From assembly GCF_044647545.1 (NCBI RefSeq), contig NZ_CP172818.1: a stretch of 64,000 bases of DNA; one strand, 5' to 3'. This document shows, piece after piece, positions 25,457 through 26,925 of the stretch. The DNA comes from Escherichia coli (GTDB taxonomy: Bacteria > Pseudomonadota > Gammaproteobacteria > Enterobacterales > Enterobacteriaceae). The notes beneath the pieces were generated by a model. It was not told where the DNA came from, made no database searches, and worked only from the letters and a program-made list of their open reading frames with translations. Each line of letters starts with the position of its first letter. Within the stretch, counting starts at the first letter, position 1. The translations under genes and the position numbers were made by a program.

Positions 25457-25646
25457 CTCTGCTTATTATTAAAAACAGGGCGAAACTTGCCCTGTTATCG
25501 CAACCCGCGCTACATATATCCCCCCACACGGGCATATTGAGCGATTTTTGATATTTATTCATCTCCTTACGCACTATATTCAGAGCAATAAGTTGCCTCT
25601 TTTTATCTTCATTCAGCACAACCTTTGCAACTAAAAGGAGCCTATA

Positions 25647-26855
25647 ATGGTTACAGTTGTCAGCAATTATTGTCAATTATCTCAAACCCAACTCAGTCAG
25701 ACATTTGCAGAAAAATTTACTGTGACCGATGAATTACTGCAGTCTTTAAAAAAAACAGCGTTATCCGGAGATGAAGAAAGTATTGAGTTACTGCATAACA
25801 TTGCGTTAGGTTATGATGAATTTGGGAAAAAAGCTGAAGATATTCTTTACCATATTGTTATAAACCCAACAAATGAAACCCTATCGATTATCCGACTTAT
25901 TAAAAATGCCTGTTTAAAATTATATAATTTGGCACATACCGCAACCAAACACCCCCTCAAATCACATGATTCAGATGATCTCCTGTTCAAAAAACTATTC
26001 TCCCCTTCGAAATTAATGACAATTATCGGTGAGGACATTCCTCTTATATCAGAAAAACAGTCGCTTTCAAAGGTACTTTTAAATGATAAGAATAATGAAC
26101 TGAGCGATGGGACAAACTTCTGGGATAAAAATCGTCAATTAACCACGGATGAAATAGATTGCTATCTTCAGAAGATCGCCGCTAGTGCAAAAAATACTCA
26201 AGTCAATTATCCTACTGGTCTCTACCTCCCCGATTCCAACAGCACTTACCTGGAAATCGCTCTCAATGATAATATTAAGAGCGATCCATCATGGCCGAAA
26301 GAAGTCCAGTTATTCCCCATAAATACTGGCGGACACTGGATATTAGTTTCGCTACAAAAAATAGTTAATGAAAAAAATAACACACAACAAATAAAATGCG
26401 TCATATTCAACTCATTACGTGCACTAGGCCATGATAACGAAAATTCACTTAAGCGTATCATTAATAGTTTTAATTCTGAACTCATAGGAGAAATGTCGAA
26501 TAATAATATAAAAGTTCATTTAACTGAACCCGAGATAATATTTTTACATGCCGATCTTCAGCAATATTTAAGCCAAAGTTGCGGTGCATTTGTGTGCATG
26601 GCAGCCCAGGAAGTGATTGAACAAAGGGAAAGCAATTCTGACAGCGCTCCCTATACGTTATTAAAAAACTATGCTGACAGATTTAAAAAATATTCAGCAG
26701 AAGAGCAGTACGAAATTGATTTTCAACATCGACAGGCAAACAGAAATTGTTATTTAGATAAATATGGCGATGCAAATATCAATCATTATTATAGAAACTT
26801 AGAAATAAAATATTCACACCCCCAAAATAAAGCATCAGGAAAAAGAGTAAGTTAA
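25647..26855 (+). CDS. elaD: ULP/CE-clan cysteine protease-like deubiquitinase
   Basis: ORF 25647..26855, 402 aa; visibly AT-rich coding sequence; recognised as ElaD from memory. Confidence 0.8.
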
Positions 26856-26872
26856 CATCATTGTTAATTAAT

Positions 26873-26904
26873 TCGACCAGTCAGTAAATATGCTGACTGG
26901 TCGA
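26873..26904. terminator. perfect 12-bp inverted repeat (TCGACCAGTCAG-taaatatg-CTGACTGGTCGA) between convergent elaD and yfbK; terminator-like hairpin
   Basis: Read directly in sequence; lies between the two convergent stop codons; no strong U-tract on either strand. Confidence 0.4.
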
Positions 26905-26925
26905 ACATAGTTTGCTAAAAAGTCA

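Follow-up and report, generated by a model that had tools for sequence, protein, structure and literature searches.

Few eukaryote-type ubiquitin proteases have been found in commensal bacteria, and the product of elaD, a gene that many Escherichia coli strains carry between rbn and yfbK, is one of them. The locus raises the question of how a gene of this kind came to stand alone at that junction. We examined this in a 64,000-nucleotide stretch of one E. coli genome (the window; all positions refer to it), in which a preliminary description made from the sequence alone had singled out positions 25457–26925 as an AT-rich elaD islet of foreign origin embedded in core genes. The gene, its activity, its patchy distribution among phylogroups and its probable foreign origin are already known (PMC1847702, PMC4961225, PMC12575377). 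Our analysis favours, with a probability of roughly 0.85, a single-gene AT-rich islet, formed of elaD and its own non-coding DNA, which was acquired horizontally at the rbn-yfbK junction and codes for an intact ElaD/SseL-family protease. To what is known we add the exact boundaries of the islet against the empty allele, the recognition of the phylogroup B2 junction as an empty site of ancestral type, a second elaD-negative class (210 genomes) with a true deletion remnant, a ratio of non-synonymous to synonymous divergence (dN/dS) of about 0.35–0.40 for elaD, and the finding that yfbK is rarer than elaD.

Composition and codon usage

The interval 25457–26925 is composed of 190 bp of non-coding DNA after rbn, the 1209-bp elaD open reading frame (ORF), and a 70-bp spacer before the convergent yfbK gene. 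With 35.5% G+C against 51.6% for the whole window, it is the deepest G+C trough that sliding windows of the same length reveal in the 64 kb (z about -3.7), and only 0.08–0.13% of these windows were as low. By gene, G+C was 34.7% in the elaD ORF, 50.5% in rbn and 47.5% in yfbK, so that the visible AT-richness of elaD and its flanks relative to both neighbours, from which the preliminary description had started, is borne out by measurement.

Codon usage was compared across 51 non-overlapping ORFs of at least 150 amino acids (aa) within the window. Among these, elaD ranked first for low GC (z = -5.2), had the lowest G+C at third codon positions (GC3; 30.3%, z = -3.7) and showed the highest share of ATA, AGA, AGG and CTA codons (z = +4.5). 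Its most frequent codons were AAA (27), AAT (26), GAA (23) and TTA (21), and the suspected bias towards AAA, AAT and ATA was likewise present, as these three make up 16.4% of elaD codons, again the highest value of the 51 (z = +6.3); the A-rich run quoted in the preliminary description was found at about 26371–26397. The sliding-window and codon checks that it had proposed thus place elaD outside the window's distribution on every measure, as is characteristic of a horizontally acquired genomic islet, and amino-acid composition cannot account for a GC3 of 30%.

The rbn-yfbK junction with and without elaD

We next turned to presence and absence of elaD in 5426 complete E. coli genomes, with elaD and yfbK counted as present where at least 80% of the gene was found. 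While rbn was detected in 5421 of the genomes, elaD was present in 4186, with any trace of it in 4473, and around one E. coli strain in five lacks it; the gene is therefore not universal at this junction, where it had been suggested to look. A nearly invariant elaD-free junction of 144 bp was found in 915 genomes, including the type strain ATCC 11775, Nissle and one ST131 strain, all three of which belong to phylogroup B2. In the elaD-free strain BEN5202 the gap between rbn and yfbK is only about 120 bp, and the 144-bp segment has no detectable similarity to the islet. Homology between the window and BEN5202 (BLASTN) stops at 25459, three bases past the rbn stop codon, and restarts at 26953, and matches to B2-type yfbK genes likewise begin at query base 28, which is position 26953. 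The islet and its gene are accordingly placed as follows.

25460 to 26952, no strand: elaD islet relative to the elaD-free allele, 1493 bp replacing an unrelated 144-bp segment of phylogroup-B2-type genomes.
25647 to 26855, plus strand: elaD coding sequence, 402 aa, predicted ElaD/SseL-family CE-clan deubiquitinase.

As the last roughly nine yfbK codons (26926–26952) may be fast-diverged rather than replaced, the right edge is placed only as somewhere within 26926–26952, and a comparison of YfbK C-termini for polarising this boundary ended in a tie, with three residues in common with E. albertii each way.

The empty junction itself is informative on polarity. Aligned with the junction of a divergent Escherichia (locus L005), the B2-type junction shows 84.9% identity, where shuffled controls reach 51 ± 2%. 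In menD, menF and rbn, L005 and E. coli share 84–90% identity (rbn 86%), which is divergence at species level. Because the empty junction is orthologous to the L005 junction, with a divergence matching that of the flanks, it is DNA of ancestral type and not a deletion scar, and a deletion could not recreate the L005-like junction sequence. E. albertii also has no elaD, with rbn followed by a spacer of roughly 115 bp and then yfbK, so that variable presence with an empty site is seen both among E. coli strains (the 915 genomes) and in related species (E. albertii and L005). Furthermore, 80 rbn loci of other species, which comprise E. albertii, the divergent Escherichia lineage and 78 other species, were followed downstream for up to 8 kb, or to the end of a shorter contig, and no ElaD homologue was found.

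The family to which ElaD belongs is also isolated. In a search of 1.84 billion cluster representatives at 50% identity only 83 clusters matched, the next relatives were at most 34% identical, and nothing lay between these and the E. coli ElaD proteins, while a direct protein search returned near-identical E. coli sequences only and no distant relatives. Beyond E. coli, relatives occur in Providencia, Plesiomonas and Salmonella. Those of Providencia and Plesiomonas carry the same family annotation, are 313–400 aa long and align with ElaD over their full length, but at no more than 34% identity none is a plausible direct donor, and for two relatives the genomic setting is unrelated, the first lying downstream of fdhE and the second beside a LysR regulator and a sugar ABC operon. 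This isolation, the different loci in each genus and the empty outgroup sites argue for horizontal acquisition of a lone gene, as had been proposed from composition, and the proposal now draws on a compositional outlier, an empty site in 915 genomes and ElaD-free outgroups. On this reading, an ancestor of the majority of E. coli phylogroups would have acquired elaD between rbn and yfbK, and inheritance would since have been mainly vertical, with some lineages now eroding the gene through deletion, insertion sequence (IS) insertion and frameshifts. The AT-rich islet DNA would presumably be subject to the silencing that is usual for foreign DNA.

Another group of elaD-negative genomes has a different structure. 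In 210 genomes we found one specific elaD-3'/yfbK deletion junction which leaves 108 nt of elaD. In the uropathogenic E. coli (UPEC) strain 536, a known B2 strain, and the avian pathogenic E. coli (APEC) strain O78:H4 E14033, probably of phylogroup G, the upstream DNA of the islet and the first 108 nt of elaD are fused to the region upstream of yfbL, and in these deletion-remnant alleles the retained DNA is 98% identical to the islet. The 108-nt remnant accounts for the listing of 536 and F11 as "pseudogene" in PMC1847702, and adds a qualification to PMC12575377, according to which B2 and G strains are simply without elaD. Other signs of decay include many fragment clusters, IS1 insertions and several deletions, among them, in one strain, an IS1-associated deletion that runs from elaD through yfbM, and they indicate that decay is ongoing. 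The phylogroup distribution of elaD has been published, and ElaD proteins cluster by phylogroup (PMC12575377; Wang 2025).

Age, selection and mobility

When this strain is compared with K-12, O157 and BS15R-A (the last likely of phylogroup B1), elaD shows a synonymous divergence (dS) of 0.09–0.13, against 0.08–0.13 for menD and menF and 0.05–0.07 for rbn. As this lies in the menD/menF range, and above rbn, elaD was present before these phylogroups diverged, which is in line with the clustering of ElaD proteins reported in PMC12575377. The dN/dS of elaD was 0.35–0.40 compared with 0.02–0.10 for menD, menF and rbn, and selection on the gene is purifying but relaxed.

We found elaD as a single copy per genome at this locus. 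No tRNA was detected, there were no meaningful direct repeats flanking the islet, and no integrase was found, with all neighbouring ORFs being named non-mobility genes. The locus therefore has none of the marks of a classical mobile genomic island, that is, an integrase or transposase, a tRNA target and direct repeats. The preliminary description had also seen no integrase or direct repeats and had judged the acquisition to be probably old, and both the missing mobility machinery and the dS of elaD agree with this.

A predicted ElaD/SseL-family deubiquitinase

The translated product matched NCBIfam NF008812 (ElaD/SseL deubiquitinase equivalog) with 430.9 bits against a cut-off of 250, covering model positions 1–343 of 343. 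It carries both domains of the family in order, the VHS-like N domain (Pfam PF22103, aa 29–137, 161 bits) and the C-terminal catalytic domain (Pfam PF22102, aa 157–362, 99.7 bits), each against a cut-off of 27. It also matched Pfam PF02902 (Peptidase_C48, Ulp1; 100.9 bits, cut-off 20.7, E = 1.2e-28) and aligned end to end with residues 21–329 of the SseL structure 5HAF (E = 1.9e-26), and the earlier description of the product as a ULP/CE-clan deubiquitinase-like cysteine protease is well founded on these matches. Because it scored below the cut-off of the SseL equivalog NF011421 (114.9 bits against 624), ElaD is a paralogous member of the family and not SseL. Catalytic residues were then assigned in an alignment of ElaD with 34 full-length family members (35 sequences).

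26334 to 26336, plus strand: codon CAC of catalytic His230; His in 35/35 family members.
26409 to 26411, plus strand: codon AAC of Asn255, third residue of the triad; column N 18, D 9, S 8, with Asn or Asp in 27/35.
26559 to 26561, plus strand: codon CAG of Gln305, oxyanion hole; Gln in 35/35.
26580 to 26582, plus strand: codon TGC of catalytic Cys312; Cys in 35/35.

His, Asn, Gln and Cys stand in the order required of clan CE (Ulp1-type) cysteine proteases. A His/Asp/Cys triad had been anticipated, and its His and Cys are indeed invariant, but the third residue is Asn255 and not Asp; either Asn or Asp is accepted at this position in CE proteases (PMC1847702). We also found the catalytic motifs to be identical across four E. 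coli ElaD alleles.

The ElaD proteins of O157:H7 and K-12 are encoded by this gene in this position (rbn-elaD-yfbK in K-12), and are 92.5% and 91.3% identical to the protein studied here, respectively. About 8% of residues differ, for the most part in the loops that separate the catalytic motifs, and the present protein has none of the small insertions seen in the O157 and B1 alleles. At 25644–25649 an ATA codon replaces the first of two ATG codons of the K-12, O157 and BS15R-A alleles, and because of this the protein starts one residue later, with 402 aa against 403–407 aa. Cys312 here is therefore Cys313 of the annotated proteins with one extra N-terminal Met (K-12, 403 aa; O157, 407 aa).

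A C313S mutation abolishes ubiquitin-probe labelling and cleavage of ubiquitin-7-amido-4-methylcoumarin (Ub-AMC) by ElaD (PMC1847702; Catic 2007), and the enzyme is ubiquitin-specific, with its N-terminal VHS-like domain predicted to bind ubiquitin as in SseL (PMC4961225; Pruneda 2016). By analogy with the O157 and K-12 orthologues, which are 91–92% identical, the same Cys-dependent and ubiquitin-specific activity would be expected of the present protein, which from its sequence appears to be an intact ElaD/SseL-family CE-clan deubiquitinase. In such an enzyme, Cys312, activated by His230 and Asn255 and with Gln305 as the oxyanion hole, would cleave the bond after the C-terminal Gly of ubiquitin, while the VHS-like domain would bind ubiquitin, and the substrates would presumably be host ubiquitin conjugates reached by some delivery route.

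SseL of Salmonella enterica (5HAF) has the same VHS-like N domain and CE catalytic domain and the same catalytic residues as ElaD, but the two proteins are only about 28–31% identical. Like elaD, sseL stands alone between housekeeping operons and is AT-rich (38.2% G+C, with 52.7% in its flanks), although its locus differs, as it lies between glpC and rhmA (yfaU), roughly 25 kb from the elaD position by E. coli gene order. SseL is a proven substrate of T3SS-2, the type III secretion machinery of Salmonella pathogenicity island 2 (SPI-2), whereas we know of no secretion route for ElaD. Judged as a type III secreted effector of the SseL kind, ElaD fell below the SseL equivalog cut-off, and its neighbourhood contained no secretion-system genes.

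As a separate observation, sseL and elaD represent two distant family members in separate islets of the same chromosomal neighbourhood. E. coli 536 has, at the site equivalent to that of sseL, an ISNCY-family transposase gene (rpnE/yfaD); the segments concerned are about 1–974 of the window, L088 8001–9023 and L093 8654–9811.

Eukaryotic Ulp1/SENP enzymes (Peptidase_C48, clan CE) share the fold family with ElaD, which matches PF02902 over nearly its full length, and have in common with it a His/Asp-or-Asn/Cys triad with an upstream Gln. These enzymes cleave SUMO or NEDD8. ElaD, unlike them, is ubiquitin-specific (PMC1847702, PMC4961225) and has a bacterial-type N-terminal domain. We also considered ElaD as a component of anti-phage defence, but this found no support, as none of the PADLOC defence families matched ElaD, YfbK, YfbL or YfbM at E <= 0.01.

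Alternative explanations for the islet

The region to the left of the islet shows an unusual dimorphism. Across elaA and the elaA-rbn spacer (about 24053–24552) there are two allele classes, which are 78–87% identical with a dS of 0.93; the elaA alleles of the window, K-12, O157 and BS15R-A are 96.5–100% alike, and the B2 strains BEN5202 and 536 as well as E14033 carry the other class. The two elaA alleles differ by 17%, and their split was strictly bimodal in 5421 genomes, with 1121 at >= 99% to the B2-type allele, 4294 at 80–90%, and no intermediates. The two classes are as far apart as different Escherichia species, the B2-type allele being as distant as E. albertii, and the 1121 genomes with B2-type elaA are nearly equal in number to the 915 and 210 genomes without intact elaD, a comparison of totals and not of individual genomes. 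These data suggest a deep two-haplotype structure around the islet, which may interest population geneticists.

It is conceivable, although we hold it only tentatively, that this structure is the footprint of how elaD arrived, with homologous recombination of a several-kb segment bringing it in from an unsampled Escherichia-like species which already had elaD between rbn and yfbK, and with no site-specific or transposable element involved. A comparably tentative variant is that both haplotypes have been kept by selection. On either view, whether a genome has elaD would be one visible element of an ancient dimorphism that takes in elaA, the rbn 3' end, the spacer DNA and yfbK. Besides the elaA classes, their bimodal split and the near-equality of totals, introgression is favoured by the 3' end of rbn (88–95%) and yfbK (92%), which are also unusually diverged between haplotypes, and it would explain the missing integrase and direct repeats. 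However, both elaA alleles are about equally far from the outgroups, which leaves it ambiguous which haplotype would be the import, and 536 and E14033 pair the second elaA allele with an elaD remnant, so that linkage is not absolute. Moreover, the association of elaA with elaD is inferred from totals, and no donor was found. If introgression were true, the published view of simple loss in B2 would be incomplete, and the common B2 junction would be either an ancestral, never-occupied site or a re-imported one.

An explanation that we regard as improbable is that elaD is ancestral to Escherichia, with every absence being a loss and the AT-richness arising from constraint, either through a Lys/Asn/Ile-rich protein or through selection for H-NS binding. 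The locus has suffered at least four independent deletions or disruptions, remnants persist in a B2 strain and a likely phylogroup G strain, and family members are AT-rich in three different hosts; Wang 2025 also reads the B2 absence as loss (PMC12575377). Loss would, however, have to account for an elaD-free junction without any trace of elaD which has an orthologous counterpart in a divergent Escherichia, and the site is empty in E. albertii as well, so that both outgroups examined show an elaD-free junction. In addition, no other species has elaD beside rbn (80 loci), family members occupy different loci in different genera, and a GC3 of 30% is not explicable by amino-acid composition.

Recent insertion by a phage, plasmid, integrative element or miniature transposon, with the 13-bp inverted repeat as its terminal or recombination site, is highly improbable, since the perfect inverted repeat at the right edge and a 14-nt imperfect inverted pair (25475–25488 and 26974–26987) are set against an elaD synonymous divergence equal to that of core genes, a locus which is single-copy in every genome with a repeat that is not dispersed, the missing tRNA, integrase and direct repeats, no phage matches, plasmid matches that are mostly very large or chromosome-sized, and the location of the right arm of the 14-nt pair in DNA shared with the elaD-free allele.

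An old horizontal acquisition of the islet at the rbn-yfbK junction is thus the reading that we prefer, but several observations weigh against it. The absence of elaD is partly due to secondary loss, as 536 and E14033 hold the 108-nt remnant, and the donor is not nameable, with no close homologue outside E. coli among the 83 matching clusters. Phage copies of elaD were searched for and none was found, and plasmid copies were not convincing, as the few matches were mostly chromosome-sized or very large records, and SseL. Despite the old acquisition, elaD still has a GC3 of 30%, which implies either slow amelioration or maintained AT-richness. Finally, E. coli K-12 has no known route that would deliver ElaD into host cells (PMC12575377).

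Boundaries and hairpins of the islet

The non-coding parts of the islet contain two predicted hairpins, one on each side of elaD.

25457 to 25646, plus strand: upstream non-coding islet DNA, 40.5% G+C; the elaD promoter and 5' untranslated region presumably lie here.
25474 to 25496, plus strand: stem-loop after rbn, 18 nt 3' of the rbn stop codon; RNA fold -16.7 kcal/mol, z = -3.3.
26856 to 26925, no strand: elaD-yfbK intergenic DNA between convergent genes, 34.3% G+C.
26872 to 26905, no strand: inverted repeat with perfect 13-bp arms (26872–26884 and 26893–26905) and an 8-nt loop.

A consensus scan of 25457–25646 gave no match to the sigma-70 consensus. The stem-loop after rbn is likely to be the rbn terminator, and it had been described as bounding elaD on the upstream side. 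The hairpin is real, but it lies inside the islet. Because it sits beyond 25459, where homology to the elaD-free allele stops, and so is absent from the empty allele, the hairpin after rbn in elaD-bearing strains is supplied by the islet and not by ancestral DNA.

Downstream of elaD, the repeat reported earlier as a perfect 12-bp inverted repeat at 26873–26904 was confirmed with its arms extended to 13 bp. It folds as RNA at -27.1 kcal/mol (z = -7.3) and is a probable bidirectional terminator shared by the convergent elaD and yfbK genes. Both hairpins would act as terminators, although no canonical T-tract follows either of them, and the terminator scan called only a small minus-strand hairpin at 26928–26943. 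We also considered the inverted repeat as a dispersed repeat or the end of a miniature inverted-repeat transposable element (MITE), and rejected this as it occurs in one place per genome together with elaD. The elaD-yfbK spacer as a whole was found as one copy per genome in 4175 genomes, tracking elaD, and because it is single-copy and travels with the gene the downstream hairpin is not a mobile-element end.

The downstream hairpin is weakly similar to an intergenic hairpin of E. albertii (1 of 500 shuffles). Likewise, an 18-nt motif, TTTGATATTTATTCATCT, at 25546–25564 matches the spacer of the B2 empty allele (L002 5970–5988) at 16/18 positions, and it also matches a similar run in E. albertii (L006 about 9009–9024). 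With mononucleotide shuffling, similarities as good as those of the motif and of the hairpin each arose only about once in 500, before any correction for the five tests made, and the two matches lack collinearity. They could be leftovers of the ancestral spacer, or coincidence. A search of 25300–27100 with Rfam detected no known RNA elements, with the best sub-threshold matches being S_pombe_snR96 (20.3 bits, cut-off 100) and STnc150 (17.9 bits, cut-off 60), and a 76-aa minus-strand ORF at 25446–25676 matched no Pfam family and was treated as spurious.

Neighbouring genes and other observations

24539 to 25456, plus strand: rbn (RNase BN), TIGR02649 684.6 bits; core left neighbour.
26926 to 28692, minus strand: yfbK (vWA-domain lipoprotein), Pfam YfbK_C, vWF_A and VWA; right neighbour.

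The islet had been described as embedded in core genes, which is correct for rbn (5421/5426 genomes) but not for yfbK. The latter was present in only 2512/5426 genomes (46%), and is deleted or a pseudogene in O157, BS15R-A, 536, E14033 and BEN5202. Each of elaD, rbn, yfbK and the elaD-yfbK spacer is 100% identical to FDAARGOS_497 (NZ_CP033850.1), in which elaD is annotated and the annotated order is menD-menF-elaB-elaA / rbn-elaD / yfbK / yfbL-yfbM / nuoN. Across Enterobacteriaceae the rbn-nuoN interval varies, with nuoN directly after rbn in some genera.

Within E. coli this interval is a mosaic, in which K-12 has yfbN, yfbO and yfbP added, yfbK and the 5' part of yfbL have been lost from O157 and BS15R-A, and 536 and E14033 have lost the 3' part of elaD and yfbK. 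The genes yfbK, yfbL and yfbM (26926–30389) are of below-average G+C (46–47.5%). The yfbM gene of this strain (29904–30389) stands apart, with only 92.6–93.6% identity and a dS of about 0.3 when set against K-12, O157, BS15R-A and a B2 strain, whose own alleles are 97–99% alike; it is probably another recombination import.

The window contains two further A+T-rich troughs, at about 7100–8600 and 46600–47400 (about 38–42% G+C over 1 kb). Judged by gene order, we take the first to be the ais gene region upstream of arnB, and the second is presumably the long spacer beside a 312-aa ORF taken to be lrhA.

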